From assembly GCA_008632985.1 (NCBI GenBank), contig QPGO01000052.1, forward strand, positions 248,001-312,000: a stretch of DNA of 64,000 bases, read 5' to 3'. A program made the translations under genes and the position numbers. Numbering within the stretch: the first letter of the stretch is position 1; the number at the start of each line of letters is the position of its first letter. The DNA comes from Psammoneis japonica. Taxonomy: Eukaryota. This document shows, in pieces, positions 1 through 47,269 of the stretch. The notes below the pieces were generated by a model. It had not been told where the DNA came from. It did no database searches and saw only the letters and a list, made by a program, of their open reading frames with translations.

Positions 1-3000
1 GTTTCCTTAGCCCGGGTTTCAGGTCTATCGCCACTTGCAGTGTGCTGTGTTTTCAGAAGAAGTCCATTGCGCCGAGGACGTTGGGGGCTACAGCAAATTG
101 ACGCCAGAAGACTTTTCGAAGCTTGTGGAACGCGTGGAGGAGAGCAAGGAAGAAGTCAGGCAGGAGGCAGAGGCCTTGGAGCCGGACGAGCTGGTACAAG
201 CGGCATTTCAGGGTGAAATCCGTTCGGCGCCGCCTGGCTTATCAGCAACCTTACTCCCATTCCAAGTGGAAGGAATGTCTTGGATGCACCACCAAGAAGT
301 GAAGGTTACTGAGCTCCGTTCGGGGATCCTTGCGGATGAGATGGGTAAGTGAAGTTCTCGTCGCACCGAATCTTCGACCTTTCCCTGATACTGATGAATG
401 ACGGCTTTAACGTTCCTTGTTAAGAAGGCATGGGCAAAACACTTCAGACTATCGCAACGATTCTTGATAATAGACCGCGGCTACAACATAGTAAGCCGGG
501 TGCAAAGCACCCACCGACGCCCGACCGTGATCAGCTTATCCGGGAGGCAAGCCTTTGGGATGACTCGCTTGCTGATTGGAAACATGAGATGGATATGAAC
601 AATATCCCGGCTTCACTAAGACCCAAAGCGAGAGGCAAGCAACCTGGAGGTGGCGCTCGAGCTGGGACCCTTGTAATTTGTCCTGTGATTGCCTTAAGTC
701 AGTGGAAAACGGAAATAGAGAAATTCACCGACAATGGAACGCTCAGCGTGTGTGTATATCACGGACCAAATCGGTCTTCGCAAACGCCGCGTCAGATGCT
801 AACTAAGTATGACATTGTACTTACGACTTATCAAGTTTTGGAAGCCGACTTCCGAAAGATGGTTTCTCCCAACAAGGTGAAATGCCCAAATTGCGGAAAC
901 AAGTTCAAAGTTGATAAACTTCGTGTCCATCTCAAGTACTTTTGCGGGGAAGGGGCGCAGCGCACAGAGGCGCAGGCACGGCAGCAAAGCAATCGCGACC
1001 GAATGCAGGCTCGTGCACGCGGTGGCGCTCCCGGTGGAAAGAGCAGAGGTACGAAAAAATCCTTCTCCAAGCCTCAAGCTCTGCGGGCGAAAAGTAAGAA
1101 GAAGTCTCCTGAAACCGCGTCAAAGCATTCCGTGCACGTAAAACGCAGCGCTTACTACGATTCCGAGAGCGACTTATCGGTAGAAGAAGCTCCTCCTGTC
1201 GTGACTGGTCGCCCATCTCGGTCAGCTGCAGTAAATGCATCGAAACGTATGTCATCTTCGAAGAAAGACTGGGGATTTGGTGTCAATGGAAGCGACTCTG
1301 AAGACTATAAAGACGACGATGTCTCAAGCAGCGACGAGAGCTCAGATGACGAGCTGGTCAAACCCAAGGCCAAACCCAAAATGCCGTCATCATCCAAAGA
1401 GACTTCGGAGAGCGAGAGCAGTAGTACCGATGACGAGGAAGCTGTTCAGCGAGCCAGAGAGAAGCAGAGAAAGGCAATGCTTCAGGCGCGGAAAACGAAG
1501 AAAGTTGGTATGGCAGAGGGTTCCAGAAAAGGTAGTGCGGGGACTGAACAGAAAAAAGGACAAAAGAAGAAGGCATCTACGAACGGAAAGAAGAAGAAGA
1601 AGAAGAAACGCTTCAATGATAGCAGCTCCTCTGGTATTTCCGACGAAGAGAGGGACGCGCTTGAAGGCATTGACATGGAGCGACTGGTACAAGAAGCCAT
1701 GGAGGGATCTGTGATGAGCCCTCTTCACAGCCTTTGTTGGTGGCGGGTTGTCTTAGGTGAGGAAAGATCTGCCGACTACCGTGCTTGGTTTACAACTCTC
1801 TTTTGGTAAACCCTCATTTCATCTTTGCTGGCAGACGAAGCTCATTTCATCAAGTCTCGATCAAGTCAGACTGCTGCGGCTGCATTCGCCCTTATTGGTA
1901 TCCATCGCTGGTGCCTTTCGGGCACTCCGCTCCAGAATCGCGTAGGTGAGTGGCGTCTCGTCGTTGGTCTCGGAATCCTCCAGTTGTACTTTTTTGACAA
2001 ACGTTTGTGGCGCATGTGACGCATAAAAATACTTGGCAGGAGAATTCTATTCCCTGATTCGGTTCTTACGGATCGATCCTATGGCGCACTATTTCTGCAA
2101 AGCCAAGGTACGTGTGTTTTGTTGGCTACGTCTAGAATTAGGGATCTTTCCTCATTTTATTTCCTGTTCTGCTGCATGTTTTCTTCCCAATACTTGTTGC
2201 CGACAGGGGTGCGACTGTAAAAGCCTTCACTATCGTATGCTCAACGGAAAGTGCCAGGGCTGCGGACACGGAAGCGTTCAGCACTACTCATATTTCAACA
2301 AGGTAGGGTACAACCGAGAACGCGTAAGACGTCATAAGCCTTCCGTGGTCTCACTTCGTTGTTCTTTGTTGCATTTAGCATGTTCTCAATCCAATTCAAC
2401 GTGACGGCTATTCTGGAGATGGCCGCCGCGCCATGTTCAAGCTAAAGAATGATATTCTTGATACTTGTCTTCTTCGTCGAACCAAGGAGACTAGAGCGGA
2501 AGATATGAATCTCCCGCCACGGCTAGTCACAATTCGCAGCGTCCGGCTTCATCCAGTGGAGGAAGACTTCTACAATGCTCTGTACACGCAGACGCGCAGT
2601 TCTTTTGACGACTACGTTGCTGATGGTACCCTGCTCAACAACTATGCGCATATTTTCGATTTGCTCATGCGAATGAGGCAGGCCGTTAGTCACCCATACT
2701 TAGTTGTGTATTCGAAAAAGGACAGAGTCGTGCCGTCTGCTGGGGGTGCACCCATTGCCAACGGCTCGGCCGATTGCGCCCTTTGCCACGAGCCACCGAC
2801 CGAGCGCGTAGTCAGTTCATGCTGCCAAGATGCATTTTGCAGGGGTTGTGTTCTAGAATACATGTCTACAACTCTGAACCTTCCTGGATCGGAAAACACA
2901 CCTTGTCCAAGTTGCAGAAACCCATTCTCCATCGACCTCAACCAGGTGTCGTCCAATGTGGTGGATGACAGCACTCTCTCTATTGGATCTCGCAATGGCA

Positions 3001-3716
3001 ATGCGGCAAGTAGCCCCATGCCTTCATTGAAGGAATTGCCGCACGTTGCAACTGGGTCTATTCTACGCCGCATCAATTTGGCCGAGTTTGCGACGTCGTC
3101 AAAGATCGAAGCTCTTACTGAAGAGCTTGTGAAGATGCGCCAAGACAGTCCAGGCAGCAAAGCTATCGTCTTTTCTCAGTTTGTCAATATGCTTGACTTG
3201 ATACGCTGGCGCTTGCATTCTGACCCATGCTTGTCCAGCATTGGATTGGGCGCTAGGGCGCTGCACGGTGGAATGGATGTGAAAGCTCGTGACGCCGCCC
3301 TTAAAGACTTTCGAGAGGACAACGAAGTTCGTGTGTTACTTATGTCACTCAAAGCCGGTGGTGTAGCGTTGAACTTAACTGTTGCCAATCGCATCTTTTT
3401 GATGGACCCATGGTGGGTGTTGTCATAATGCTCTTGTTTTTGGTTTGTGAACTTTGTGGATCTGATTGTGATGGTTGAATTTTTTGATTTGTATAGGTGG
3501 AACCCCGCAGCGGAGTTGCAAGCAATTGATCGTACCCACCGCCTCGGTCAGCACCGCCCAATAAAGGCCGTCCGATTCATAGCAGACAACACAGTTGAAG
3601 AGCGCATTGTCCAGTTGCAAGAGAAGAAACGACTGGTTTTTGACGGTACAGTGGGTAGGGATGCGGGTTCACTCAAGATGTTGACAGTGGATGATATGAA
3701 GTCGTTATTCTGTTAA
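1..3716 (+). CDS. RAD16: RAD16-like SNF2 helicase/ATPase with RING finger; 5' end outside window; exons approx <1-344, 428-1756, 1835-1945, 2040-2107, 2207-2302, 2379-3412, 3497-3716
   Basis: Splicing at GT..AG sites joins [74 protein letters not shown] and [21 protein letters not shown]. The HLKYFCG motif and [12 protein letters not shown] are typical of Rad16. Confidence 0.9.
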
Positions 3717-16095: not shown

Positions 16096-17097
16096 CCTCT
16101 TACAGTCTCGCAGAGAGAAAATGATAGTGTTAAAACGGTAGTGCAAGCGTGTTTGCAAACGTTGCTGGGATTCCGCTTCTTCCTTTCGTGACGGAAATGT
16201 GAGATGCTGAGGTGCACTTGCACTTGCAATGAGAATCCCGCGCGTTTCTGCATGCAGGCAAAGCTTTCTTGGAGCGCTGTTTTCTTTCTCTGAGGGCAAA
16301 CCATGAAGAAAAGGAAGGGGGGAAGACAGGGAGAAAAGAAAGGAGAGGCAGGTCTCCCTTGGTGTGGCAGCATGTGCCATCCTCACACCTGCCAGCTTTC
16401 AGCAGCACACAAGCAGCAGCGTGAAATTTTCGAGCTCTGCTTTCTACTCAGCTCAATCTCACAAATTGCGCTGCTCTTTCTGGCAGCTGCCTGCGGGCAA
16501 GCTCAGTCACACCTGAGTGTCCTTTTAATCCACAGCCATGAAAGGGTTTGGAGCATCATTTGTGTGGAGATGAGCAGCCAGCTGCTGCAGGAGGGAGAGT
16601 GGCAAGAAGCACAAAAACAGCTTTGCTCCCGAGCCCCCCCCCCCAAATCACAAGAACCCTGGTGGTGTTGAACCCATGCCTTTTGGCTGAGAGATCACAA
16701 TGGGGAAAAGGAGCTCTCTTCTTTGCAGGCACTGACACAAAGCTGAGGCCCCATGCACAGTGTGGCCATGGCACCTCAAGGAAAGCACCTGCTTGCATTG
16801 TTGTGGATTTTCTTTTTGGGCTGCAGCAAGCTTTTGCCTGGCACACATGCTTCTCTCCTCTGGAAAGGCTTGCTGCAGCACTTCTTTTTGTCTTTTGGTT
16901 TTCTGTTTTCTCTCTTGAGCTTTCTCTCATGGATCTTGAGGCAAAAGCTTGTGGGGCAACATGCACAAGAGAACACCTGTCCCCACGCGCTGCTCTGTGA
17001 TTGTGGCACTCTTTCTTGCATGCAGCTGGCTGGGGAAAACAGAAGGAAGGGTGCAAACATCTTCTTTTGCAGTGAAGCACACAGCCACTTGCCAGCT

Positions 17098-17570
17098 CTT
17101 GGACTCTGGCCATTGTGGTGTCACAGAAGAAAGGCAAGATCTTCTCAGCTGTTGCCACACAAACATCAACAAATTGTGAGACAAACTGGTGACAAACTGA
17201 AACTTTGCAGAGCTTGGTTGAAGATTGGGCCAGTTTTGGATGACACAGCTGCACTCAACTAAGAAAAAAGCTTTCTTGGTGTGCTGCTTTGGTTCCACAT
17301 GATGTGAGCATGTGAAGCTTCTGGTTTTCCTTTGAACAATCAGTGTGTCCCCCTTTTCTTGCTTGAGACACTTGCCAGTGCTTGGACTCTGGTTGTGGCG
17401 GTTTGCAGAAAGGCAAAATCTTCTCAGCTGCTGCACAGCTAAAACTCAGAAATTGTTCAAAAAAATGGCAACAAACTGTGGCAACTGAAAGTTTGCACAG
17501 CTTGGAGAGAGGGCCAGTTTTGACCAACAAAGCCATGCTCAACTGAACAAAAAAAAGCTTTTTCTTGGCA
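17098..17570. repeat. Degenerate direct duplication of about 190 bp (17098-17282 and 17381-17570)
   Basis: Shared cttggactctgg..gaaaggcaa.atcttctcagctg..gggccagtttt..ctcaact..aaaaaagcttt..cttgg. Confidence 0.75.
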
Positions 17571-18449
17571 CTGTTGCAGAGTGTGGCTGTCACATGTGAG
17601 CATGTGTTGCTGGCCTTTTCCCACAAACAATCTTCCCCATGCACCCCCTTCCTTGCCATTGTTGACAAAAGACAGGCGGGTGAGACACAAGTTGGAGACC
17701 ACTGGGGCCATGGAGCAACAATGTTTTGTGCACAAGGAAATGGCAGCATGTGGAGTGTCCTGCCACCATGGTCATTTTGGGCTAGAAAGTGACTTGCTCC
17801 TGGCCAGCCACTTGCTCCTGGTTCCTCTGTTGCATGAGCTGACCATTTTTCATTTTGAGTCATTGGCGCCTTTTGAGTGCAAACACTTTGTTTTGGTTTT
17901 TTTGTGATCTGTGGTGCCATCAAAAGTGCCTGTGGTTGGAAGCACTGCTTGTGTGCATGGGATGGGATGGGCTCAAACTCTGCATGGCACACCAGCAAAA
18001 TGGTGCATTTTTAGAGTTTTTCATCCCCCACAAGCCAGACCAAGCAGCCATCTCTGTGGTCAAAGTTCTTGACAACAAGAAGATTCTCAATCCTCCTCTC
18101 CTTCTCTGTTCTTTCCTTTTGTGCATGCACAGTTGGCCACACTGCCCTGCACAGACAAGCACCAGCTCCAAGTGAAGCAAGACAAGTGGACAAAGATGGC
18201 TTCCATGCATCAGCAGGAGCTCCCATGAGTTCAACCCAATGTGGTGCACAAAATCTTTGCAAAGTGTGGCTGCAACCACAACATGAAACAAGACACATCT
18301 TGTGTGCCCAATCTCCCCCCCCCCCCCTCTTTGGGAAGTGGAGTTTTTGGGTTGCTTGATGCTGAGCAAGGGGTTTGGCCTAGAGACTTTCCTTTAATTT
18401 TGGATGCTTGGGCTCAGAAGCAGCTGCATTTTGGTGCCAGCATCAGTTT

Positions 18450-19820
18450 TTTGAAGGAAGTTGACACCCCATCATTGCCCTGTGCCAAATGGATGCCTCT
18501 CTCTCTCTGGACATTGATTGCCCTGCTGGCATCCCCCTTCTGCAAAGAAACAATGACCTGCACCATGCCAAGGACATTGTTGCACTGGAATTTTGCAGCT
18601 TGTCAGCTGAGCCACACCAGTCTTGCTGACCCCCAAACTTGCTGCATGGATTGCAAACACACTGCTCTGTGCCAGTTGCCATGTTGTCCTGGTGCAAAAG
18701 CTGAAAAGTGACCACAGCAAGTCCCACCTTCATGGTGAGTTGCAAACATGATTTTGACATGTCACCAACAGTTGTCAGTGTCACTTTCACTTCAACATTG
18801 TCTGTCTGTGCTCCAAAAACTGCATCACACCTGGGTGCTCCAACACAATCACTCCAAACACATGAGCTCTCAATTGGTTGGCCTTGTGTGAACAAACCAA
18901 AGGAGGAGGATGACAGTTGGAAACCATGTCACCTTGCACCATGTCAACTGCTTCATCAACATCCATGGCTCACTTCATCTGACTCCACCTGCAAATGATC
19001 ATTGTCATCATTGAGCAAAGGACAGTCCTTTTTTGCATGCCCAACCTTGTTGCATTTCCAGCACTTGATCTGCTTTTTCTCATTTTGCACAAAGCTTGTG
19101 CCCTCAGGTTTCTTGTTGGCCCCACATGTGTCCAACACCTGCAGCACCTCCTCTTCTTGGCCAAATTGGGACAATTGTCAATCTCCAGTGCAAAAACTGC
19201 TGGTGCAAGTCCTTCAAGATGTGCTGACATTCCTTTTGCACCTTCCATCCATGAGCAGCACTGCTGACAACTTGTTCCTTTCTTTCTTCCAGGTGGCATC
19301 AGCATCCTTGCTGAACCCATCTTTTTTCTTGGCAATTCTTTCAGGACAACCCTTCTGCAGCACCACCCTTCTGCTGTCTCAACAATCCTCATCTGCTGAT
19401 TGCAGCAATTTTGAAGCACCTCTCCTTTGTTCCAAGGAACAAGTGCCAGCTGCTTCCAAGCTTCAACAGCCTGAACATGCAAGCACACTCTTTTGTTTGC
19501 ACTGAACAAGATCAACTTGAGAATTTCCAAACTGGTGCCATCACGCCCAACTCATTTGTGACACTTGCAAACTCCGTCACTCCTTCAACCTTGTGATTGA
19601 TGGCCTTCATGCACTGTCCCACAACACAATCAGTGAGCACCCACATGGAAATGCGCACAGAAATCTGTGATGCTCCTGAAGCATTTGTTGAGGGACATCC
19701 ACAATCCAATCGGCATTTTTGCCTCAAATTTTGCAGCATCACTTGCTGCCAGCACCATCTGACATTCATTGACATGATTGTGACACCCACATGTGCAGCA
19801 CCCAACCTCCTCTTGTTCCA
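18450..19820 (-). mobile_element. Copia-like retrotransposon remnant (gag zinc knuckle plus RT-like fragment)
   Basis: IKCWKCNKVGHAKKDCP CCHC knuckle near 19020-19070; segment 18610-18830 is homologous to 29890-30080. Confidence 0.6.
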
Positions 19821-21369
19821 CAAGGAGAAAGAGCAATGTGTTTGCAGCAGTTGGGGTCTAAAGTGCTGTGAGATCCAAGAGAGCTTTCGTGCTCAAGCCA
19901 AAGCAGGCAAAAATGAACCTTGTGCTGGTTGATGCATGCATCTGCAACTTGGAGGCAATTTGGAAGAAAGCAGAGCAATGGAGAGATGTGGCACTGGCGA
20001 ACCTGGGAATGTCTTGATGATGCAATTGTCAAATTTGGGTCAGGCTCCTGTTGCCAAACATCATTGGACCATCAAGCAACTGTGGTCTTTTGATGGTGGC
20101 AAGAAACCCTCTGCACCACTGCCCTTGGCAAAAATGACAGCTCTGATGAAGGCAGTTGACCTTCAACTCTTTATGAAGAAGGGACTCTTCATGAAAGAGA
20201 GTTCCAACAAGCAACACTTTCACTGTCTCAGTGTCCCAATGAAATCATTGTTGACAGGAAAGACAAGGATGTCACCATGCAGTGAGCGCAAAGATGCACT
20301 TGACATGCACAGGACATTTGCAAAGCTCCAAAAAGGAGAAGCATTGCACAACAAAGAGCGTGAGCCTCCTGAATCAATGGAGTCAGATGTGATTGAAGAG
20401 AGAGAGCTCAGGATGCACAGCAGAAGCTGTCACTCCTCAAACAAAGCAACAGGATGAGTGTGCACGGGAAGTGCAAAGCTGAAGCATCTGATGCTGGCAT
20501 GGCTGAGCCTTTGTGTGATGACCATGATGTTGAAGACTTTGCTGCAGATTTTCTTGACTCAAACTCTGCTTCTCATTGTCAAGAACTTGCATCACCCAAA
20601 TGGCACACTGACAATCCAACAGCATGCAAAGATGTGTTTGGCTTTCACACTTTGGAGGAGATGAAACACAGCATCTTCTGTTTCTTTGTGATGCACCAAT
20701 TCTTGTGTTTCTGACATCCTTTTTGATGGAGATGACAGAAAACTAAAGTGCAATCCAACCAATCTGACACAACTCAAACAGCGGCTGATTGCAAAGCACT
20801 TCATGCAGCGTTGCCCAGTGCACAAGATTGCTGGGTTTGCTTTTGGCATGTCATGACATTCGTCAAAGAGATGCATTGAAAAATTGGTGGGCCAAGCATG
20901 GAGAATTTCTTTTGATTCTCTCCTTGAGCCACATGATTGCTTTGACAAGGAAGTGCCAGACAAGTTCACCAAAGTGCTGCTTGACTTGGTGGTTTTTCTT
21001 TTTGATGGAAAAAACACTCCCACAGAAACAAAACACAAAGATGATGCTGCATGTTGCACACAAGCCAGCTCCAAAATGCACTGTTTGGCACTGCAGTTTA
21101 TGAACTTTGTCACAGCATGTGCACTCTCAAATGAGCACACTTGGGTGTGCAGGGCTGGAGCAGATGAGAACAAATTTGTGTTGTTGAGTGGTGGGTGCAG
21201 AGAAGAGAAAGCACCAACAGAACAGTGGAAAGACTGTGTCGCGCATCATGCATTTCCGGCACCGCAGTGTGCTGAAACATTGGACAGCACTCAATGATTT
21301 GGAAGCAGTCAGAGATTTGCTTGATGCTTTGGTTGAATCAATTGACAGAATGGAGTCAGATGGCAAAAC

Positions 21370-21736
21370 TGCACTGTGCTCGAAGAACGAGTGTAAACGA
21401 AAGTAGAATAGTGTACGAAAAGTGGAAATTATGAGATTGGATTTTACTCTGTGATTTTTGGTTTCTCCGAATGAGTTCTCAATGGCCTAAAGCTTCTGTG
21501 CTGCTTCTACAGACAAAAGGCCTTTCGGAGAATATAATCGTGACAACAGATAGTCCGAATACGATTGCTTTTGACACATAAGATGTCAGCATCGTCTATC
21601 GATCGCATTTGCGATTTTCGACTTCCGATCAACTCTGTGTGATCGTTCTGTCCTTCGCACGCATCCACGACTGTGGCACGATTGACATGTAAATAACACA
21701 TAATCACACATATGCACACAACAGTCGCATGCTGCA
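21370..21736 (-). repeat. 3' LTR of the gypsy element (TA-converted copy)
   Basis: Ungapped alignment to 25637-26003 with 14 substitutions. Confidence 0.95.
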
Positions 21737-24700
21737 TTCGCCTCCCTAATTGCACATTAGAGTCATTTGTTAAGTGGATTATTCGACGGATGTTGACAGT
21801 GTCAACAATGTCTCCACGTTCACTGCATTGTGCCATCAGTGATGACTGTTGTCGTTTTGTGTGGGCCATGTGGGGCCGTTCCAATTTCTGAATGTCTCAT
21901 GAGAGTGACATCGTTTGTTTCTCACTTTGTGTGTGTGCATGTGTGGTGTTACGTCGAGTGTTCTCGTTGACGTTCTTTGTTGACATGAACACAAGGACCA
22001 ATTGTCCTGCAGTGTTTTTCATGATGTCGATTGTACCTGGCATTGTGCCCAGTGCTTGATGTGCGCTCTTTTAATTGTTGTGGCGTTCACTTTGCTTGTG
22101 GAGTTCATGCAGTTCTGGCTGGCTAACTTCACATGTGCCACATTGCTCTGCTGCACTTCCACGTGTCGTAAGCAATTGACGATGGTCAAGGACATTTTCT
22201 AACCATTTCGTCTTGACAATCCTGGGATGGTCATGGACTCCTTTGTGGATTTCTTCATTGCTTCAACCATCTTTCCTTTGGATTTTGATCGTCATTTGGA
22301 CGTTTCTTTTTTGACATGCCGGTGACATTTCGTCATTCCGAAGGCACTGCTTTTGTGCACTGTTCGGATGAATGTCCATTTTTGTGTTTTGTTTCTGAAT
22401 CTTTGGCACATCTCGTGTGACGTCATTTGTGTCTTGCCTTGCACATCGTACATTGCAATCGTGCGGGTGCTGTGAGATTGTCTTTTGCCAATGTGAAGCA
22501 GGCACGTGTGATGTGCACCAATCTGTCACTGATTTTTTCTTTAACCGTCCCCAAACAAGGCGATTTTTTCCTTATGACATGAGCATTTTTGATCTCGCTC
22601 GCCTCCACGAAAAGTGTTCGTATGACATGTCGCGCCCGACAATTTGGAGGAAATGTCTTTGTCCCGTTTTGTTCAGTGTCGAGAACTTTGCAATTTAACG
22701 GAAAGACATTGTCGCAGGATTTTGGTGGGACCTTTTCAGCCAACTCTTCTGTGCTGAGGTTTTCCACAGGTTCTATTTTTTTTATGGCAAGTCGGCTGAT
22801 CGCTCTTGCGACGACGTTCGCCTTGCCCTCGATGCATTTTATTTCGGGACTGGAATTCTGCATTCTAAGTCGTCAACGCATGACTCTGTCCGTTGTGTGT
22901 TGTGAACCGTGTGTGTGACAATCTGTTGGCCAAACAGTGTGTTCCGGGAATTGTTGAGTGTTTCCACTGTGGACAGAAGTTCTTTTTCCGTTGTGACTTG
23001 AACATTGCAATGCCATGTTTGACAATGACATGGTTTTTGATGTGATGCGCTCCACATTTTCGGAGACTTTTCGTTCTGTACTTGTCCTTTTGCCGTTTGA
23101 CCTTTGTTGAGGTGGATTTGGCTAGAAATGTACAGGAGATCATTGAGACTGCATGTCTTTGTGGCAGCAACATGTGTGGACAAGCTGTCGCAATTTTCTT
23201 TGCGTTTTGCTCAATGTTGCGATTGCCAGAATCGCCTCCATTTTCTTTGTAATTGGATGCACACCGTTACGTGTGGAAGTCTTGATAATTTTTTTCAAGT
23301 TAAGCAGTGAAGGACTTTTGTTTGTCAACCTTCAAAGCGACTGTTCTGGTCGTGTGAACGCCGTTTCAAGTTTTTCTTGTGCAGGTGACATTTTGAAGTT
23401 ATTTTCTGTCAGGTGTAAATGTTCATTCTTAGTCGTTCTGACAACTCCAAACCTGCCATGAGTTCACTCATGCGTTGTATGAAAATACATGGGGCTCCAT
23501 GGATTCTTGTCGGAAGTCTGCAGCACTCATTTTCCCCCACGGCATCATTCTGATGTGAGCACGACGTGTGCTTTTTGATTTTATATCGTGGTGTTCCATG
23601 ATTGAATCGTAATTTCATTTTTAAAACTTCAATCTTTCATAATTGGTTAAATTCCTTTCAAATGAATGCCTCCAAAGACTGTGACAGGAGAAGGTTCTCA
23701 CACGTCGTGGAATCGCGTCAGATTTTTTCACAGCGAGATCCATTGATTCTTTCAATTCATTTGTCCAAGGAACTTTTCAAAAGGATTTCAAACCTCTTAA
23801 GAAGGAGACTGAGTGGTTTATCTTCTTTTGGTTAAGATGTATTGCTGTAGCTGTCACTTGATTAGAATCGACGGCGTGATAATGTGAGTCGAGAACCATC
23901 GGTCTCGTTATTAACTCTATTCACCGCGTAATATTTTTCAATGTGATCGGCATTCAGCTGGAACATTTCTGTATCGAAGAGTGCATCAACATTCTTCATA
24001 GGGTAATTGCTTCATTCCCATTTGATTTCTTCAATTCCGTAGTCTAGTATGATTGCAAAACTGGACATTAAGTCGCGTCCCATGATCATATCATTCGACC
24101 TTGAAGGGTATTTGGTGTTATTGACATATACTGTTTGAATATCAGTAAGTCTTAAATTCGCGTACTGAGAACTGAATTCGGTGTTTACTATCAGTCGTAA
24201 AGAGCTCACCCTTGGTTTCCCAAGTTTTTTGGTGGCGGATATCTTGGTTCTCAACTTTGCACGATTTTGCGTAAAATCATGGGCTGACGATGTTCTTTAT
24301 CGAGAGAACACGTAGAAGCTTATTTTTTGCTTTTCTCAGAGAAGTAGTCATATAGACAGCGAGAATAGGACTCGTATAACATACTGTGATGCTTTTTCTG
24401 GGTTTCCAGACGTCCTGTAACGCGTTATACTCCTTGAGCGGTATAAATTTTTGATCGGACTCGATCGGGTCAATTTTTCTAAATTGATAGTTTTATTCGT
24501 TAAGCGTTTTAGAGTCTTAATTTTCGCTCTTATTTTTACGTTCCTTTATCGAGGAACTCGCTTTAATTGTTTTTGTGAACTGCCTAGTTCATAGTTCAGT
24601 TCAATTCCTCTTTCACAGAGGTATTTCTGCTCTCGTCACGTTCGCGTGCGATTGCCATTTAGAGCGTCGTATTTTTGGGTCTCTTTTAGAGCCACCCTTG

Positions 24701-25636
24701 CACTCTTTCGCTAATTCATTTTCAGAATAGCTTTAATCCGTGATGTAGGTATTCTTTTTTCAAAGATTGGACCTTTTATTCACTTTGGATTGTGGTGGTA
24801 CCATATAGGAGACCATTTTTGGAACCAAAATTGGAACCTTTTTGATTGTGGAATCAACTGCGCTATCAGAGCCCGAATTGATATGTTTTTTTGTCATAGA
24901 CGTCCTTGCCGACCTCTAGACGACTCAAACCTCAATCAGCTCGTAAAGGGTATGATCCAGTAGTTCAATATTTTGGACAGTAGGCTGATGCTGCCATCCT
25001 TGCGGTGCGAGTGATAGCTGATAAATCAGCGCTCGGTTTCCCGCTAGATTCGACTTAGAATCCATCTGAGGGTCGTATAGACTCTCATCGTTGACCTCTT
25101 GGGTCTATCAGAGGCTTTCTTGCTGTTGAGCGGCTCTGGTTTCTTCAGGTCGTCTCGAAAATAATTTCCCTGATTCTGAAGTGCATTTCCTCGGAGGACA
25201 TGAGTTATGAGACGCTTGAGGTACTTTCCAACGATTCCCTCTTGCTCCTTGGACTCGAGGATCATCGATTCGGTCTCAAAAAACTCTCCAATAGTCTCTC
25301 CTTGCATGGTAGACGTATTTCTCGGATCTGATCGACTCGGAACTTGCATTCTCTGCAACCATGACTTGGTGTAGATTTTTTGATAATGCGGTGTACTTGA
25401 GAGCCCTTGATCCTTGGGTGCTTGGAATAGACCGTATTAGAGCGAATCCTCTTGTTTGGTAGACGAAAAACAGCGTTCCATCTTGAGGTACTGCTCGGCT
25501 TGAGCTTCTTCCGCTCGGAAATCGATTCCAGCAGAACTGATGCGATTCGTTCCTGTTTATAGAAGAATTTGCAAAGGCACATTAGTTGAAATTTTCATTT
25601 TCCGTACTTTTTACCTTCTGTGGTGTGTATACACAA

Positions 25637-26003
25637 TGCACTATGCTCGAAGAACGAGTGTAAACGAAAGTAGAATAGTGTACGAAAAGTGGAAATTATG
25701 AGATTAGATTTTACTCTGTGATTTTTGGTTTCTCCGAATGAGTTCTCAATGGCCTAAAGCTTCTGTACTGCTTCTACAGACAAAAGGCCTTTTGGAGAAT
25801 ATAATCGTGACAACAGATAGTCCGAATACGATTGCTTTTGACACATAAGATGTCAGCATCGTCTATCGATCGTATTTGCGATTTTCGACTTCCGATCAAC
25901 TCTGTGTGATCGTTCTGTCCTTCGCACGCATCCACGACTGTGGCACGATTGACATATAAATAATATATAATCATATATATGTATATAACAGTCGCATACT
26001 GCA
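25637..26003 (-). repeat. 5' LTR of the gypsy element (TA-retaining copy)
   Basis: Ungapped alignment to 21370-21736. Confidence 0.95.
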
Positions 26004-26217
26004 AAACAGAAAATGGCACAACCAAACACACTCAAGCTGTTGAACATTCTCAAGAGTCTGGAAATGCCCCTGTCAATCACATGAGTGCAAGCAGCCAAAA
26101 AATTGAATGCTCTGAGAAATCTAAGAACAGCAACAACTCTTTGAGCACTGATTGCGAGTCTGACTGGATGGACATGACCAATGGCTGGAGTGAAAACAGC
26201 ATTGTGACAATGTCCTC

Positions 26218-26790
26218 TGCAGAATCCAGCACCAACAGTGATGGCCAGGAAGTTTCAAAGTGTGACAACATTTTTGTCAAGTGTGATGAATGGCTCATTG
26301 AAAGAGTTGGGACAGTTGTTGAAAAAGGAGAAAGCTCAAAGATGCTGGAGTTGACAAGGTTGCATTGCTTGTCAGTGAAGACCAAGCCTTGTTGAGGTTT
26401 TAAATGAAAAGGCATTGGCTTGCTCACTGCAAAATGATCCAGAGTCATTTCTTCAGCAACTTGAGCCATTTAAGAGACTCTGCAGGCTGTGCAACTCTTG
26501 GCCACTGCAGAATCCACCACCAACAAGGATGGCGTGAAAGTTTCAAAGTGTGATCCTGTTTTTGCCAAGTGCAACAAATGGTGCAATGAAAGAAATGAGG
26601 CTGTTTGAAAAAGGAGAAAAGCTCAAAGATGCCAGAGTTGACAAGGTTGTGTTGCTTGTCCATGAAGACCAAGCCTTGTCTGAGCTTTTAAATGAAAAGG
26701 CATTGGCTTGCTCACTGCAAAATGATCCAGAGTTGTTTCTTCTGCAACTCAAGCCATTTGAGAGACTTCACAGGCTCTGCAACTCAAAGG
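26218..26790. repeat. Tandem duplication of about 288 bp within the DDE pseudogene
   Basis: tgcagaatcca..aagtttcaaagtgtga..gaaaaaggagaaa..ttttaaatgaaaaggcattggcttgctcactgcaaaatgatccagagt occurs twice. Confidence 0.85.
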
Positions 26791-27288
26791 CCATCTCTGG
26801 CAAAACATGGTGAGTGCCCATTTTGAAATGAAAAAGGAGCATTGCTGGGATCTTCTTTGCTGGATGGGAAGCAAACTGACCCCACCAATCTGCAGAATGC
26901 ATGACCCTGAGTTGCCTCCAGAGGTCCACTTGTGCCTGCACAAAATCCTGCCAAACAAAGAAGAGCTCAGCAACAAAGGATCTGAGAAGACAGAGCACTG
27001 TTTTCCACATTTCCATTGAGTGTGCATGCCTCAAGTCTTGCCACCACAAACCATCAAACAACAGCATGACGAGCTTGAACTTGGAGACAAGAAGGATGTT
27101 TGCAGGGCATGGCTTCCAATGATGGTCCCTTTTTCTTGGCTTGTTGCTGTTGATGGTCTCCACAACAATGCCCCACACCATGAAAATCTTTGTGTCATCA
27201 TTCCACACATGTTGAAATGGGGTGCACATGGAAATGAGCCTTGGAGCACCACTCCAATGGCCAGGAGGGGCTGACAGGGGTCTTCCTG

Positions 27289-29196
27289 TCAATTGCTGGG
27301 ATTGAGAATTGTGCTGCGGCTCAAAAAAATTGTCAACATTTGATCTGCAATGGTTGCTTCCCATTTCCTGCTGCTGCACTTTGCCTTCTCTTGCACCATC
27401 ATCAGCTCCATCAAGAGTGGTGCTTTGTTGATTGGAGATGGGGGCATTGTTCTTTCAAAAGCATCTTTGTTGGCACAACACTGCATTTGGTGGAAAATGA
27501 AAAGTGCGCGAGAGTGTGCAAGCACACTTCTCATCTGTTGCAGCATCCACAGCACAAAAAGGGGCATGACAAAAATTGATTTGCATCAGCATCAAAGCCA
27601 ATTGCAGCATGTGGCCTTCTTGTGCCTTCTTTGCTCCCCTGATTGCAGATTTGATGACACTGCTTCTGTCTTCATGGGTGGAATGCAATGAAGTTTGAAC
27701 AGCTGCACAAAATTGCCTTCAACAAACATTTTGCAGATGCAAAGCTCTGTTGCATCAATGAGCAAACCACCACCTTGCAACAGCAGGAAACCTTGTTTGA
27801 GCTCATGTTCATTGCCTTTTTGGTGAAAATTTTCAACCAAGCTTGGCAGCATTGAATCAAGCTCTGACACACAATCACAATGACAACAGCATTTGTTGAT
27901 TGATGTGAAATGTCTCACAGCTGACTCTAATTCTGACTCATCCCCAAAAACAGGGTGTCCAAGTTGAGCAGATGCCCAACACTGCAACACAGTGGTTTGC
28001 ACACACATGGAATGGGAGCCACTTCAAAATTAAGATGTGCGTGCAATGGGAGTTCTTTTTCACAATGACAAAATTGCTCATTCTTTAATGTGTTGTAAAG
28101 AGGAGCCAAAAATTTCTTGCTCAATGGCTCGCCATTCAAAAAGGTGGGCCCTTCAAACTGCTGTGCCAATCAACAGTCTGTGATGGCATCAGGTGGCAAC
28201 TTGAAAGGGTCAAAGCCAACAGCTTTGCCCCACAAAAAAGCAGGAGAATTGCCTGTCTTTTCTTCCAATGGATTCAGTGGAACAAGATTGTGATGTTTGT
28301 CAAGGACCGGGCAGTGCAAAAATGGTGCCGCTGCCTTGTCAAAGTTCTCCACACAGCCTGCTGGGATTGCAGCCTGTCCAAAGGCTTTCTCACCAACTTG
28401 CGCTGCAGTGCCTTCAGACCAATCTGTGCTGGCAAGCCTTGGAAGGATGCTCTTGAAGATTCTTGAAAACCCTTGGTGGCTGCAGTTGTCTGAGCCAAGA
28501 AGATTGGTTGTCGCTGAAAAGCATTTGAAGTCATGCACTGCAATGGGACAATTGGCAGGCAATTGGCCCCTTTTGTGCACTTTCCATGCACCATCAAACC
28601 ACAGATCAACCTTAAAACAAAAACAACCTCAGCCCCCAGAACAACAGTGTCACCATCCTCTCCATCATGACACTGTTGATTCAACCGTCTGCCTCCATTT
28701 TGATGAGTTGTTAGTGCTTGGCCTTGCGTGCAGAGCATTCATGTTGGACTCCATTGCCAATCATCTGTTCTTTGACCAACAATGTTGGGTGAAAGGTCAG
28801 ACCAATCTCTTGCTCTTTGCAGTGATTGGCACTGGTTGACCTCGGCAATCATGTCACCAGCTTTTCTTTTCTTTGTGCAGTCATCCATCCATGCATCTGC
28901 TTTTGCCATCTTGTTGTCCTTGCCACACTCTTCATTGGATGTCTTGCCCCATCAAAAATGTGAAAAAGAGATGCCCCAGCTGAGACAAGCTTGTTGTGCA
29001 TGGATTTGGCTGTTGCCAACAAACTTTTTGGCAGATGCAGTGGCTGTGATGGGAGGCACAATGCACAGTGGCATGTTTTGTGAAGCCTCGCCAATGTGTT
29101 GATCCTGGTTCTTTTTCCACTGGCATCAGCAAATGGTGCAGACTGCAGCTTGTTGACATTGCCAACAGCTTTGACCCATGGGTTGCCAATTCCCAT
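27289..29196 (-). pseudogene. Exo1/XPG (Rad2)-family nuclease pseudogene with C-terminal SWIM-like zinc finger, convergent with the DDE gene
   Basis: MGIGNPW..GKRT.IN...RLHK, HIFDGARHPMK, QLIKMEADG, EDGDTVVLGA and LLGSDN follow the XPG-N, XPG-I and H3TH motif order; a Cys/His cluster near 27510-27570. Confidence 0.78.
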
Positions 29197-29889
29197 TGCC
29201 TGTGCATTGAGGTGTTGTGGAGTGATGTGCAGAAGTGCAGCATCAAGGCATGCAAAAACGAGCTTCAGTTGTGGATGATGTCTCTCAATTTTTTTCATGC
29301 ATCACATCTGCACCCTTGCTGCTGCTCACTGCTTCAAATGCCTTTGCTTTCTGTGTCTTGTGGATTGTGCCCCATTTCATGAGGTGATTGCATTGATTGC
29401 CCAGATTGCCTTGTCTTTCTCCAGTGTGGTTGCACCTGATGGATGTTCCAGCTCCTCTGATTTGCTCTTCTGCCTCACACACCAGTGCCTGCATCTCTGG
29501 CCTGAACACTCGTCCAACATGATGCTCATTTGCTTTCCTCTCATGGCCTCTGTGCATCTGCCATCCTCTGCCCTCTGCCTGTCATCCTGACTTGGCAATG
29601 ATGCCGCACAGTCACTCCTTCAAATCTTTTGTGCTTCCATGCTCATCAGCTGTGTCCTCACCCCGCATCAATGTTTCCCCTGGTCTGACACAACTTTGCC
29701 ACACCTTTTTTCAACAGACCCTTCACAGCTTTGTCACAGCAAGGTCCTCCAGAGACTGTCTGTTCACTTGCTTCATTGAGCCAGTTTGCTTGCCACAATC
29801 TGCTGGCATGAGCTCTGCACCTTTGGATTCTTGATGACTTTCCAGCCAGCCTTTTTAGCTTCAATGTTGATGGAATTTTGTGGCTTGCC

Positions 29890-30080
29890 AACTGATCTGT
29901 GCCAGCCTTGCTGCCCCCCAAACTCACCACCATGGATTGCAAACACTGCTCTGTGCCAATTGCAATGTCATCATGATGGTGAGTTGCAGGTGTGATTCCA
30001 CCACATGTTGCTGACAGCCACTGGCATTGCTTTCACCACTTCAATGTTGTCTGTCTGTGCTCTGAATTGCGTGTCACACC
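29890..30080 (-). repeat. Dispersed repeat homologous to 18610-18830 (probable copia RT fragment)
   Basis: Shared catggattgcaaaca..ctgctctgtgcca..atggtgagttgca..ttgtctgtctgtgctc. Confidence 0.65.
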
Positions 30081-35472: not shown

Positions 35473-38400
35473 AGCGAAGTCGCAGGATAGAGACAAGAGC
35501 GAACTAATTCTAAGGAGGTCGCTCAATGCATGCAAAGTGTCATGTTGTGCTCTGTACTCTAATGTAGTCCACTTACTCATAGCCTCTCCTCCAGGCGGCA
35601 GCGTGTGAAAAATAAGAACACCAAGCACTCCTGGCCGGGGAACTCTCACTGACAGAAGATGCAAAGCCGTAAAGTAGCTAGATGTCCCTCTCAAGATACA
35701 AGTGTGCTTAGCAGTCTCTCTCTACTAGAAGTAGTACGCTCTACAAGAGTAGAGGCCTGCTGTTGATCAGCTCGAGTATGTCCACCTTCGGACAGATGCC
35801 AAACGCTTGTGCCTCTTTACTTCACCGTCTCAACCCTCGAAACCCGCCTTTTCTTTTGTGACCGACAAGTCATTCTTTGTTGTTGCAACAATGACAGCAA
35901 CAACAAGCTGTGATGGAAGAAGACAGGCATGCCCCTCTCCACTCTTCTCACACACAGCTCTGCATCCATCATGGTGGACCATGCATCTCCCTTCTTGGGG
36001 CAGCATGTGTGGTGTGGCAGTGTTGTGTGTTGCCTGGCAGCATCTTGGCATGAGTTTGGTTTCTGCAAACTTGTGCTGCAATTAAGCCACTGTTGCTCTT
36101 TGTCTCAGGAGCTGTGCTGGCATCTGTGATGAAGAGCATGGTGACAACAAGGTCGCAGCATGGTCCGGCAAGTTGTGCAGCCCGCTGGGTGGGCACAACA
36201 GCCAGCTTAAAATGACCCACACATCCTGGTGGGGTGCAGCAATTGGCAGGTGGCAAAAGGCTGCACAGTGCTGATTTGGGAGAGAAGCCAAGTTTGGGCT
36301 CCTGTTTGGCCAAATCAAAGTGCAGTCAGTCAAACCTTGTTCGCCACAGCTCCACCATGCACTCACTTTCAGGTGTCCCTCCTGAGGGCGGTCCACCTGA
36401 GCGAAACAGCACAGCATCAAGCAGTGCTTGTTGGGCAGGTTGTGTGCTCCTTTCTTTCCTTGTTTGCATGACCTTGACATGTTTTGGCATGATTGGGGGG
36501 TTGAAGAACCCCGCCCTCTGCCATGGCAGCAGGTTGTCAATTTTGAGCAGCTGATGGTCTGCCAGTTGTGGAGAAGGGACTCACATGGCATTGGCAATGT
36601 GGCGGGCATTGTCTGGTCATGTTCCTGGCTGCCATGCTCAGGCACCATGCATGGTTCCCATGATGCACATGTGCTGCACTTGAGCAGTGACTCGCACTTG
36701 ATTTTCAGCTCATGCTGTCTGCTCTTTCCTTTTTTTTGGCCCACTCAATGTCCTGACAAACAAGAATTTTTCAATCCACAGTCTGCGCAGTGCAGGGCTC
36801 ATTTTTTTGTGACATCTCAGCAGCTCAAGGGTGACTGTGCTTGATGGCTCATGGTGGTGACAAAGCCTCTCCTCATCAACCATGGATTGGATGATGCTGA
36901 TCCCACCAAAGACATCTCACAAAAATGTTCTGCTTTCTGGCAGCACAGAAATTTCTGTTGCCACAGAAAAGCACTCCTCAAACCACTGCTGCAGTTGCAG
37001 GGTTGTTTTCAGCTGAACAAACAATGGACAAAGACAAGCATCTCTTCCACCTTCAAGAAATGTTCAAAAGAGTGTCAAGATTGTCAAGCAACATTTTGTG
37101 ACAAATGTGTGGAGAAAACATCTTCAACTTTGCTCTTTCCACTTTTCACAAGCACATGCCCCGCAAACCACTGTGGATGAATGTCCCAGCTCCACAGTGC
37201 TCTCATGCAAGAAACACATGAACAACCCCCACCCACTCTGGGTGTGTGCAACAAAGCAAAGGCCACTGCACTTGCAAAGAAAAAAGATGCACAAATCAAG
37301 TTCTTGTCACCATGTTTTGAGCCAAGAGGAACAGATGTGCAGTTGTGGTGCCTGCCAAGAATGGATGCCAGGCAGATGGAGCTTTAGATTGTTGCTTTTG
37401 TGATCATGTGTCAGTTCATTGTCTTCTGATGCAGATGTGACAAAGCTTCAAGAGATTGAACAGATGTGTGCATGTGAAGCACAGTTGGCACAGCTTCACA
37501 GAGACACAGATGCTGGGTGGAACAACATTGTGTTGAAACTGACCAAACCTGAGTGCTGCCTGTTGCATGATCAACGCTGCTCCTGTCAAAAACAGTGCAC
37601 CACAGTTTTTGACAGAGCACATGCAAAGCCTGCAACTGGGGTCCACCTGTTTTCAGTGGCAGCAGCTCTTGTTTTTCTGAGAAATTTGCAGCCAGCATGA
37701 CTGCCGCGCCATTGAAAGGGTGCCTTTTGTTGTTTGTCAGCTGCCCACCGGTGTTCATTCTGTGCACAGCTTGTCAATGATCATTTTCAATTTTTCTTCA
37801 AAAGCCACCAATTCAAGACACTGCTGTTGCTTGTGTGATGACACATCATGTGCAGCACATTTGTGTGGCACACAGATGGCAGTGTGGCAGTGGCACAAGT
37901 GTTTCTGTGCAATGCAGGTCAAGAACAAGAGAGCAAAGCTGCCTCGCAACAGAGAACCTTCTCTTGAGACACATGTCATGTTTTGTCATCTTGCACTTCA
38001 AATGTGGTTCAAATGGCAAATGCTGTGTTTGTTGCATGTGAGCTGGCAGCACTTTTTGTTGTGCATCTTGCACACAACAATGACAAATGAGGGTGCTGAT
38101 GAGCCAAGATCAGGAAGAAAGAACTGCCCCTTTAAGACAGAGCATGCTTTGTTCATCCTGCAGAACAGCAACTTAAAACTTGACCACATTGCTCTGAAAA
38201 GGGTGCAAACACACATTTTGTGAGGGTGCATCATCTCTCCAGGCATTTCTTGATGCTGTCAAGCAAGAGGAGGACATTGAGGCTGGCACTCCCAGGTGGG
38301 TCTGCTTGTCAAGTGTTGCACTGCTGGCAGCAACCAGTGGAAAATGTTCTGGGCAGGAGTTGAGAGATCTTTTTTTCCAACCAACCCACTGGCTTTGGAG

Positions 38401-45049: not shown

Positions 45050-46990
45050 GGTTGTGCATCATTGTTGCAGCTCATTTCCACCTCACTCAGCTCTCAGCAT
45101 GGCAAATGGTGGCCCTCTTCCTCTTGAGTTGACCAACAAAGCTGTCAGATCACAGCTGTGGATGTTGATGTGAAAAAAAAGACATTGTTGGCTCACTTCA
45201 CCTCCAGGTTTTGGCAATTGTGCAAGTTGCAGCACATGCTTGTTGCCAAACCTTTCTTTTCAACAGATGAGTTGTTCCTTTTTGCTTTGCTTCATTGCTT
45301 TGTGGCCATGAAAGTGAATCTTTTCTTGGATGATGCAGTCAATTGTGCACCCAAGGCAAGAAACAAAGGACGAGTCACTGTGAGATGGAGCTGGCAAGCA
45401 AATTTTGCTCAACAGGAATCAGACAAAAATGGTGCTCTGGGGGGGGGGTTCATGACCATTGACTGTGACAGAATCCTCACACAACCATGTTTCACAAATT
45501 GCCAGTGGCCACATCAATGACAGTGTGTGGGAAACCACAGCAGCGTCACAAACAAGCATGTTGATTTGGACATGCTTGTGAAATTTCAATGTTGTGACAG
45601 CTCTTGCACATCTCCAACCATGCTCAAAATGCAACTCACTCTTGGCTTGGTGCAGTCCTGTCTTGGCACCAGCAACAAACTCTGACATGTTTGCCTTTGC
45701 CATGCATTCTGCATGCTTCAAATTTCATGTTTGCCATTGCAGCCAAGTCACAAGACAATTCTGCCATGTGACAGACAATGCAGAGTGGTTGGTGTGCATT
45801 CATCATGGCCAACAAATGCTTCAGCATGTTTCTCAAACAGCTGGCCTGCCAAAGTCTTGGTGATCAAATGATGTGGACCACCCACCCACACTCCTCCCAC
45901 AGTCTTTGGATCTTTGGCATGCTCAGTCACTCTTGTTGTGAGCAATCTCAAATGAATGATTCTTGCTGTCACCCCATGCTTTGCCCTCAGCTTCAAACAC
46001 AATCCTTGATTTGGAGTCACCAGCATCATGGTGCACTGAACAGATTCCATGTTTTGCCACTCATGAACACAGATCCTCCTGCAGCAAGATGCAATTGGTG
46101 CCGTTCCTTCCAGCAACTCAAAGTCATCTTCAAAACTCCAGCTGACAGCTGGCAGAATCAATTTTTGCCCTTTTGTTCTCTTGGTCAATGTCAATTTTGC
46201 ATCCCAAATTTATTTGAGTTCTTCTGTGTTGTCACAATCAAACAAATTCTTCATCTGCTTCATTGTTTGCTTCTTGAACACAGTGCTTTGGTCCACAAAT
46301 GAAGCAGTCATCAACCCATGTTGTTAACTGTGTGGCTGACCCATCAAAAACCACTTGAATTGCAAACAGGGACTGGCGTTGCTCTTTTTATCTTTCGCTT
46401 TTATGGAAGCTTTGTTGATTTCCCACTGGAGTGCAATGGCAGCTTGCTTCAGCCCATGTGTTGTTTGCAATGAAGATGGCACAACATCTCCTGAACGGAG
46501 TCTTTCAAATCCTTGTGACACTTCCATGTGTGCAGTTGTTGTTCATTCTCTAAAATTGGGCCATTGAAAATGCTCCACATGCATCCAACAACTGGGCCCA
46601 GTGCACATCAGTGCCAACAATGCTGCCCATGCAGTGACGTCATTTGCAGCTGGCACAATTTGTTGAGCTCCTTGCAGTGCTCTCCCTCCACTTGTGTTTT
46701 TGAACAATCTCCACAAGCATTTGTGTGAGCCCAAAATTCTCAATTTGCCTTCCATTTTATCACCCAAGTTGAGCTTGGAATTCTTGCATCCTCCGGAATG
46801 TCCTTGTGATTGCTTGGCTCCCAGATGCTGTGTGCGCTGCTGCAAACTTGTGACGCACCCTCTTCTCCAGCTGGTGCTTCACAGCACTCCCAGGCAGCGT
46901 GGAACGTTGGCTGTCTTCACAGCTTCAACATCATGTTTCATGACTTTTAATTCTGAAGTGTTCTTGAATCCACCGCCCAGTCCAGCTGCA
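45050..46990 (-). mobile_element. Second copia remnant (RT/RNaseH)
   Basis: MEVSQGFE..DVV..LQTTHGLKQAA, ASPCLQFKW and WVDDCF (about 46301-46318). Confidence 0.8.
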
Positions 46991-47269
46991 CAGCTCCAAC
47001 CAATGGCTGATCAGGCAATTCTGGCGCAAAAAAGGGCAGGTCCCGCCCCCATCCAGGCGAAGCCTGCATGGACACGCACTGTGCACTTGAACACCTGTGT
47101 CGTCGCGGCGCGCCAAAAATTTTTGCCGCGGCGGTCGACGGTCGCGCGGCACCGCCGCATCTCCTTGCTCTGCAAGCAGCAAGCAGTGACAGGTGACAGC
47201 GTGGCGGGTGTTCTCGTTGTTGTGCAGTGCTGTCTTTGTTGTGTCTACTCCCAGTTGTGTGTGTGTGCG

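Follow-up and report, generated by a model that had tools for sequence, protein, structure and literature searches.

A stretch of 64,000 nucleotides from Psammoneis japonica (NCBI GenBank assembly GCA_008632985.1, contig QPGO01000052.1, positions 248,001 to 312,000 of the forward strand; hereafter the window, numbered from its first letter) holds at 21370-26003 an element that, judged by its sequence, appears to be a decayed long terminal repeat (LTR) retrotransposon of the Ty3/gypsy type, about 4.6 kb long, lying on the minus strand and with a badly decayed coding part. The two LTRs of this element differed at 14 positions, 13 of which were TA in one LTR and TG or CA in the other, and a 2-kb part of the interior close to the LTR with fewer TA was itself depleted of TA.

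The left LTR (21370-21736, minus strand; TG..CA ends, 18 TA) was assigned as the 3' LTR and the right LTR (25637-26003, minus strand; 31 TA, all kept if TA is ancestral) as the 5' LTR. The element is bordered by AAAC at 21366-21369, repeated at 26004-26007 (AAAAC if the LTR is taken one base shorter), consistent with a target-site duplication; being short and A-rich, this repeat carries modest weight as a mark of an LTR element. An 11-base run resembling a polypurine tract (AGGGAGGCGAA on the minus strand, 21737-21747) was located directly upstream of the 3' LTR, and no such run was present beside the other LTR on the plus strand. The position of this run, beside the left LTR on the minus strand, sets the strand on which the element is read and makes the right LTR its 5' LTR. 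No primer-binding site of the TGG type could be recognised by eye beside the right LTR, where no comparison with tRNAs was made.

When the interior was scanned with Pfam (21 minus-strand open reading frames (ORFs) and three read-through frames), no family scored above its cut-off, and protein look-ups gave no match for either the read-through interior (1221 amino acids, word-based look-up) or the LTR's own ORF of 75 amino acids. A phmmer search of the interior against 1.84 billion representatives returned three weak matches (E 2.4e-6, 1.9e-4 and 2.8e-4). One weakly matched protein, P0017, carries RVT_1, RT_RNaseH, Integrase_H2C2 and rve, and its pairwise BLASTP alignment with frame 1 of the element reached an E of 2e-10 (query 67-467 to 47-535, 112 of 499 positions identical, 22%), colinear from the protease motif to RNase H. 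This comparison outlined a frame-1 pol remnant, interrupted by in-frame stops, at 22902-24104 (minus strand), running from protease to RNase H. The remnant was best conserved in an RNase H relic at 22887-23030 (minus strand), which was 46% identical to P0017 over 35 residues and matched RT_RNaseH with an E of 0.048, below the Pfam cut-off. The integrase part of the element's pol was not recognisable. Minus-strand frame 1 contained 42 in-frame stops, compared with 67 and 60 in the other two frames.

The LTRs aligned over 367 columns without a gap and were identical in 353 of them. All 14 differences (LTR positions 7, 70, 131, 157, 237, 320, 328, 330, 338, 340, 346, 348, 350 and 362) were transitions, with G or C always in the left LTR and A or T always in the right. 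In 13 of the columns the right LTR read TA and the left LTR read TG (5) or CA (8); at position 157 the left LTR had CG and the right TG. Realignment showed that every count in the first-pass annotation had been correct (two 367-bp LTRs, 5 TG and 8 CA on the left, a single CG/TG difference, no transversion or indel). All 18 TA of the left LTR were shared with the right. The chance that at least 13 of 14 differences would fall on TA bases, which account for 62 of the 367 bases, was 1e-9, and a loss of 13/31 TA on the left versus 0/31 on the right gave a one-sided Fisher p of 2.5e-5. If TA is ancestral, 8 of the changes occurred on one strand and 5 on the other, in line with the earlier statement that both strands were hit, and GC content rose from 0.384 to 0.422 as TA was lost. 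The differences were also clustered, 9 of the 14 lying inside 43 bp (permutation p 0.0002 over all positions; p 0.011 when 13 of the 31 TA sites were drawn at random). Nine TA-type changes were found in the last 48 bp of the left LTR, at its inner end, and four across its other 319 bp.

Divergence between the LTRs was 3.8% (14/367) overall, 0.27% (1/367) without TA sites and zero outside pyrimidine-purine steps. Because nearly all of the divergence was at TA sites, dating by LTR divergence is unusable here, bearing out an earlier warning that it would mislead. Since the LTRs showed no differences outside pyrimidine-purine steps, most of the decay of the coding part probably predates the insertion, as in a non-autonomous lineage.

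A two-change-point fit of TA density along the element placed a TA-depleted domain at 21785-23795 (minus strand), with 1.64 TA per 100 bp inside and 6.21 elsewhere in the element (likelihood ratio 65), a loss of about three quarters. TG and CA together reached 19.2 per 100 bp in the domain versus 12.5 elsewhere in the element, and CG was nearly unchanged (4.1 versus 4.9 per 100 bp). The domain covers roughly that portion of the pol relic which corresponds to reverse transcriptase (RT), RNase H and integrase; according to the P0017 alignment it starts between protease and RT and extends to the end of pol. The remaining interior, on the gag and protease side (23796-25636, minus strand), was TA-normal, with TpA/ApT 0.75 and (CpA+TpG)/(ApC+GpT) 1.11, and held 21 in-frame stops. 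Between the TA-normal part and the domain, frame-1 tyrosine fell from 4.2 to 0.6%, cysteine rose from 0.3 to 3.5% and histidine from 1.3 to 5.5%. At three positions of the best-aligned stretch, in RNase H, the codons of the element read ACA, ACA and CAC, and the residues of P0017 are Ile, Ile and Tyr. The proteins P0016-P0018, at 22-31% identity, were too distant for polarising the interior site by site, and only the RNase H stretch was used.

The LTR pair records the edge of this 2-kb, probably hypermutated domain over pol, and not a contrast between two whole LTRs. The 13:0 asymmetry had been taken to suggest regional or burst-like mutagenesis rather than a clock; a regional process is the best-supported reading, the asymmetry coming mostly from the edge of the domain, and a burst is indistinguishable from a steady regional rate in a single sequence. 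Spread of the depletion from the TA-free flanks was considered and rejected, as the outer part of the left LTR, which adjoins the flank, keeps most of its TA.

The DNA around the element was almost free of TA, as had been reported: 1-kb windows at 17-21 kb and 26-30 kb had rho(TA) of 0.01-0.07 and rho(CG) of 0-0.17. One flanking block nearly without TA and CG occupies 16500-21369 (TpA/ApT 0.04), and the other occupies 26004-30000 and holds a 288-bp tandem repeat. Four TA-poor blocks (~16.5-21.4, 26.0-30.0, 36.0-46.9 and 51-63 kb) together amounted to ~32 kb, about half of the window; rho(TA) in them was 0.04-0.06, rho(TG) and rho(CA) were 1.7-1.9, and the first three were also nearly without CG (rho 0.08). 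TA frequency in the blocks was 0.0030 (59 TA in 19,766 bases).

Gene DNA in the window had rho(TA) of ~0.63, a value shared by ordinary spacers, and rho(CG) of ~0.96. The genes show long unbroken ORFs, and 7 of 15 large ORFs scanned had Pfam matches (SNF2, Helicase_C, TMEM151, PAP2, AA_kinase, Pkinase and GNAT). An SNF2-type helicase was split into ORFs 424-1809 and 2379-3428, 570 bp apart, by an intron or a frameshift. The short intergenic spacers in the first 16 kb were TA-normal, indicating that TA depletion is not common to all non-coding DNA. The TA-poor blocks reach up to gene boundaries, for example at 16.4 kb beside the AA_kinase ORF and at 30.7 kb beside the kinase ORF.

Among the stop-free ORFs of at least 90 amino acids in the TA-poor blocks no Pfam family scored above its cut-off, and sub-threshold matches were seen in only 3/109 and 1/65 of them (CxC1 of KDZ transposases, DUF2477, DUF6830 and DUF6697). 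CxC1 of KDZ transposases was matched with an E of 8.7e-4 at 16294-16668, DUF6830 with 7.2e-3 at 37017-37400 and DUF6697 with 1.6e-4 at 55752-56078, all on the plus strand. These three could be remnants of DNA transposons, or the cysteine-rich translations of TG-rich DNA may have matched by chance. Because TAA and TAG are gone from TA-free DNA and TGA stops alone are left, false gene calls would arise there. The ORFs 55559-56806, 56810-57655, 59770-60696 and 46667-48601 (282-645 amino acids, in TA-free DNA) contained 0-0.3% tyrosine and no Pfam family.

Two sets of duplicated sequence bear on the direction of change. In the 288-bp tandem repeat (26211-26785), the two copies differed as TG versus CA at 8 of 52 shared TG/CA positions, and 16 of 27 transitions were TG-versus-CA doublets. 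Such doublets arise when a shared TA or CG resolves independently in each copy, which indicates TG/CA as the derived state in this genome. A second duplication spans 47484-48185 and 63450-64000, with one copy in TA-depleted and the other in normal DNA. When 47984-48185 was compared with 63781-64000, eight sites were TA in the normal-DNA copy and CA or TG in the depleted-DNA copy, none showed the reverse, and seven shared CG were intact; at one site the normal copy has TAA and the depleted copy CAA, where the ORF continues.

The TA that remained in the depleted blocks were unevenly distributed over sequence contexts. YTAR (Y, pyrimidine; R, purine) accounted for 67 of 102 residual TA, compared with 164 of 897 in normal DNA (Fisher 1.6e-22). 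Counted on both strands, retention relative to normal DNA was 0.20 for TAA, 0.09 for TAG, 0.028 for TAC and 0.020 for TAT; ATAT and ATAC/GTAT were gone entirely, and 46% of TTAA was kept. YTAR alone offers no TAY on either strand, so the preferred target is the A in 5'-TAY-3'. The same context rule was found in the LTR pair, where 12 of the 13 changes matched TAY on the changed strand. By class, 10 of 14 RTAY were lost, 1 of 10 RTAR (to CA, as predicted), 1 of 5 YTAY (to TG, as predicted) and 1 of 2 YTAR.

All 22 of the 1-kb windows with rho(CG) below 0.3 had rho(TA) of at most 0.10. Ten 1-kb windows (47, 51-52, 55-60 and 62 kb) combined rho(TA) below 0.15 with rho(CG) of at least 0.5, and none in the 64 kb showed the reverse. 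Since every CG-poor window was also TA-poor and some TA-poor windows kept their CG, TA loss precedes CG loss, both affecting the same regions. CG with G or C on either side was best retained (GCGC, CCGC, CCGG), and TCGA, ACGT and ACGA/TCGT least. The CG loss may be ordinary decay of 5-methylcytosine, with which it fits; a second activity of the same enzyme is conceivable. According to the title of PMC10354150, an ADAT2 has been reported to deaminate both C and A in DNA.

The direction of change had been regarded as fixed by the TA-free surroundings. This did not hold up, since a single C-to-T process acting on the right LTR would also yield all 14 differences. The reading of the first-pass annotation, loss of TA to TG and CA in the left LTR, is nevertheless the best supported, short of proof, by composition, tyrosine content, repeats, context and termini, and on these indirect lines we consider it very probably the true direction. 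TpA/ApT and (CpA+TpG)/(ApC+GpT) were 0.78 and 1.09 in the right LTR, and 0.69-0.71 and 1.20-1.22 in the gene baseline. The right LTR and the TA-normal interior match that baseline, whereas the left LTR and the domain deviate from it toward the composition of the TA-free blocks, which argues for TA loss. A pol gene needs tyrosine and the domain encodes only 0.6%, which argues the same way. The TA sites at which the LTRs differ belong to the classes erased from the blocks, and TG/CA is derived in the tandem repeat of a depleted block; both favour TA loss. The termini also favour it, because the letters of the right LTR give the better terminal inverted repeat (9/10, versus 7/10 with left-LTR letters, as read from the alignment). 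No other copy of the family was found in the 64-kb window, even in a purine/pyrimidine alphabet that ignores transitions, and two metagenome scans, one for an exact stretch of 30 bases from the LTR and the other for a pattern left degenerate at pyrimidine-purine steps, gave no match.

We regard hypermutation of TpA in place, after insertion and limited to a domain, as the probable explanation. A Ty3/gypsy-type element, already non-functional, would have inserted into DNA previously stripped of TA and CG, and a region-limited mutation process would then have acted on the chromosomal copy. This process would convert A to G within TpA on either strand, preferring the A in 5'-TAY-3', so that TA becomes TG or CA. 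It would have removed about three quarters of the TA in the 2-kb domain, from RT to integrase, and also hit the adjacent 3' (left) LTR, taking 8 of 12 TA at its inner end and 5 of 19 beyond; the 5' (right) LTR, 4.3 kb away, would have lost none. Used as a control, the LTR twins give a loss of 42% of TA sites on one side and none on the other, with a background divergence of 1/367. The single CG/TG difference would be an ordinary CpG transition in the right LTR. TA is probably the ancestral state and the change probably took place in the chromosome; the chemistry would be that put forward for Bigelowiella natans, in which an ADAT/TadA-like enzyme directed at foreign DNA deaminates adenine in the DNA itself.

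Gene conversion or recombination with an older, TA-depleted copy of the family would leave the direction of TA loss the same and turn the asymmetry into a difference between two ages, the tract running from inside the left LTR to ~23800. The two fairly sharp edges of the depleted domain suit this idea, as does the crowding of 9 of the 14 LTR differences into 43 bp at one end, like a tract boundary, and the matching target-site duplication is compatible with it, excluding only a crossover between two elements. Against conversion stand the four further TA changes across the rest of the left LTR, with none in the right; moreover, the putative tract within the LTR contains no non-TA difference, and a search of the window for a donor, also in the purine/pyrimidine alphabet, gave none. 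None of these objections is decisive, and we consider conversion unlikely. A process like repeat-induced point mutation (RIP) would instead have deaminated cytosines in the right LTR, changing C to T in the CpA context at 13 sites and in CpG at one, with the left LTR ancestral. It has the merit that one process suffices for the split of G/C on the left and A/T on the right at 14 of 14 sites, 13 of them in the CpA/TpG context that fungal RIP prefers. The usual RIP thresholds are a TpA/ApT of at least 0.89 and a (CpA+TpG)/(ApC+GpT) of at most 1.03. Both indices fell short of these in the right LTR and adjoining interior (0.75-0.78 and 1.09-1.11), which are not enriched in TA, and the 14:0 split, with all changes in one LTR, is at odds with RIP normally striking both duplicates. 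In addition, the flank beside the right LTR lacks TA for 118 bp despite its many CA and TG, a functional pol ancestor with 0.6% tyrosine is impossible, and the LTR differences fall in the site classes that the TA-free blocks have lost. RIP-like change of the right LTR was therefore judged very unlikely.

Editing of complementary DNA (cDNA) before integration, APOBEC3-like but acting on adenine, would affect most strongly the 3' part of the element and its 3' LTR if these stayed single-stranded longest. The depletion does lie over the 3' half of the interior as far as the polypurine tract and enters only the 3' LTR, and the 3' bias resembles the known editing gradient on retroviral minus-strand DNA. 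However, editing of minus-strand cDNA of the APOBEC type predicts changes on one strand, and the LTR changes fall on two (8 + 5), with both TG and CA in excess in the domain; neither the TA-free DNA surrounding the element nor the hypermutation of B. natans chromosomes requires reverse transcription. We attach a very low probability to editing of cDNA. An artefact, in which repeat copies were mixed in the assembly or modified bases at TA and CG miscalled, appears just as hard to credit. The only sequencing run that contains the stretch may be the assembly's own source: of the 31-letter words sampled across 20400-27000, a share of 0.65 occurs in Logan contigs of run X1, and almost none in two runs from that sample. 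An exact-word share of 0.65 in those contigs would not be expected from noisy reads, however, and the pattern extends coherently through the 64 kb, stops at gene boundaries and follows a sequence-context rule. In B. natans, Illumina data yielded this signature too, according to the text of the preprint (bioRxiv 10.64898/2026.01.13.699255).

Several observations weigh against domain-limited TpA hypermutation in place. The cluster in the LTR is ~55-95 bp away from the fitted edge of the domain, and the ~90 bp that separate the two keep 8 TA. The strand bias also differs, the LTR cluster being mostly T-to-C on the plus strand and the TG excess of the domain exceeding its CA excess there. Decay of the interior extends across the domain edge (identity to the nearest pol is no more than 22%, and the TA-normal part has 21 in-frame stops), and part of the TA depletion of the domain may predate this insertion. 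The ancestral letters at the 14 sites are presumed ones, no other copy of the family having been found in the window or the metagenome scans, and a single C-to-T process confined to the right LTR would account for every one of the 14 with fewer processes to assume. The change at LTR position 70 lies in a YTAR context, and the fit to TAY in the LTR alone is marginal (12/13 versus 43/62 possible targets; our own binomial estimate is ~0.06).

Domain-limited hypermutation could be part of something broader. We tentatively propose, while holding it to be somewhat doubtful, that some eukaryote besides the sequenced Bigelowiella strain has a defence that edits adenines of 5'-TAY-3' in its chromosomes, aimed by homology or RNA at the conserved pol part of retroelements and followed by a slower loss of CpG, with DNA free of TA and CG as the end point. 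In this element, gag, protease and most of both LTRs were spared, as a defence aimed by homology or RNA would have it.

To date, a single preprint on a single organism has reported targeted A-to-G editing of foreign DNA in chromosomes. The window would add an independent natural record of a TpA process, in a retrotransposon and with an untouched twin LTR as internal control. It also displays the order of events, TA loss before CpG loss, and the end state, kilobases nearly without TA or CG. The third-base rule, TAY, could narrow the search for the enzyme to TadA/ADAT-like deaminases; bacterial TadA edits the A in a U-A-C loop, which serves as a lead only. In genomes of this kind, dating by LTR divergence fails, gene finders call long false ORFs in TA-free DNA, and similarity searches miss decayed elements.

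Among known systems, fungal RIP, a genome defence, likewise produces transitions in one dinucleotide context across repeats and transposons, in-frame stops without frameshifts, and a dinucleotide signature. By contrast, RIP changes C to T at CpA, creating TA and lowering GC, and hits both duplicates, whereas here TA was destroyed, GC went up and one twin was untouched, if TA is ancestral. With the APOBEC3 and ADAR systems the pattern shares a deaminase, here putative, as restriction factor and clustered transitions in copies of retroelements, and ADARs favour U before the edited A (stated in the text of bioRxiv 10.64898/2026.01.13.699255). These enzymes differ in editing cDNA or RNA before integration and strand-specifically, RNA edits being copied to both LTRs; in the present element both strands were hit and the twins differ. 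Decay of CpG by deamination of 5-methylcytosine resembles the pattern in that CG becomes TG or CA, copies end as TG versus CA, and loss is slower in a G+C-rich context, but it covers only the CG half of the signature and 1 of the 14 LTR differences.

The closest likeness is to TpA-specific hypermutation of integrated viral DNA in B. natans (Mettrop et al., 2026-04-14; bioRxiv 10.64898/2026.01.13.699255), the sole paper on TpA-specific A-to-G hypermutation that stood out among the matches listed. As described in the main text of that preprint, 231 of 302 nuclear point mutations in mutation-accumulation lines fell in two integrated viral regions; of these, 230 changed A to G or T to C, in each case on TpA. 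The regional rate was ~1000 times background, in some lines only, and an ADAT2-like A-deaminase was proposed as the agent. The long-term signature given there consists of TpA-depleted clusters enriched in CpA and TpG, with low-TpA 'CDS' (coding sequences; TpA frequency 0.0018) enriched in reverse transcriptase and DDE domains. That study thus shows experimentally that such a process exists, which direction it takes, and that it is regional and episodic.

The window agrees with the B. natans account in having A to G or T to C only on TpA (13 of 13 TA-type LTR changes, if TA is ancestral), with TpG or CpA arising on either strand, and in sharply bounded regions, here the domain 21785-23795 in a retroelement and TA-free blocks between TA-normal genes. 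These blocks, where Pfam matches were sub-threshold only, may be foreign DNA. The two cases differ in that the direction was seen directly in the mutation-accumulation lines and is deduced here, and in their targets, giant-virus and virophage insertions there and an LTR retrotransposon with a twin LTR control here. The DNA of the window is probably not from the sequenced B. natans strain, since its NAGS-like protein reached 59% identity with its best database match and its genes show long unbroken ORFs; a Protein Atlas look-up for lineage gave NAGS-like clusters from plants and diatoms and was uninformative. LTRs, CpG and third-base context do not figure in the main text of the preprint, its figures and supplements aside; in the window the TA-free blocks, about half of the total, are also largely CG-free. 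Compared with B. natans, the window therefore suggests as new additions the TAY target, the loss of TA before CpG, the LTR twin as an internal control, and a possible aiming of the process at the conserved pol region.

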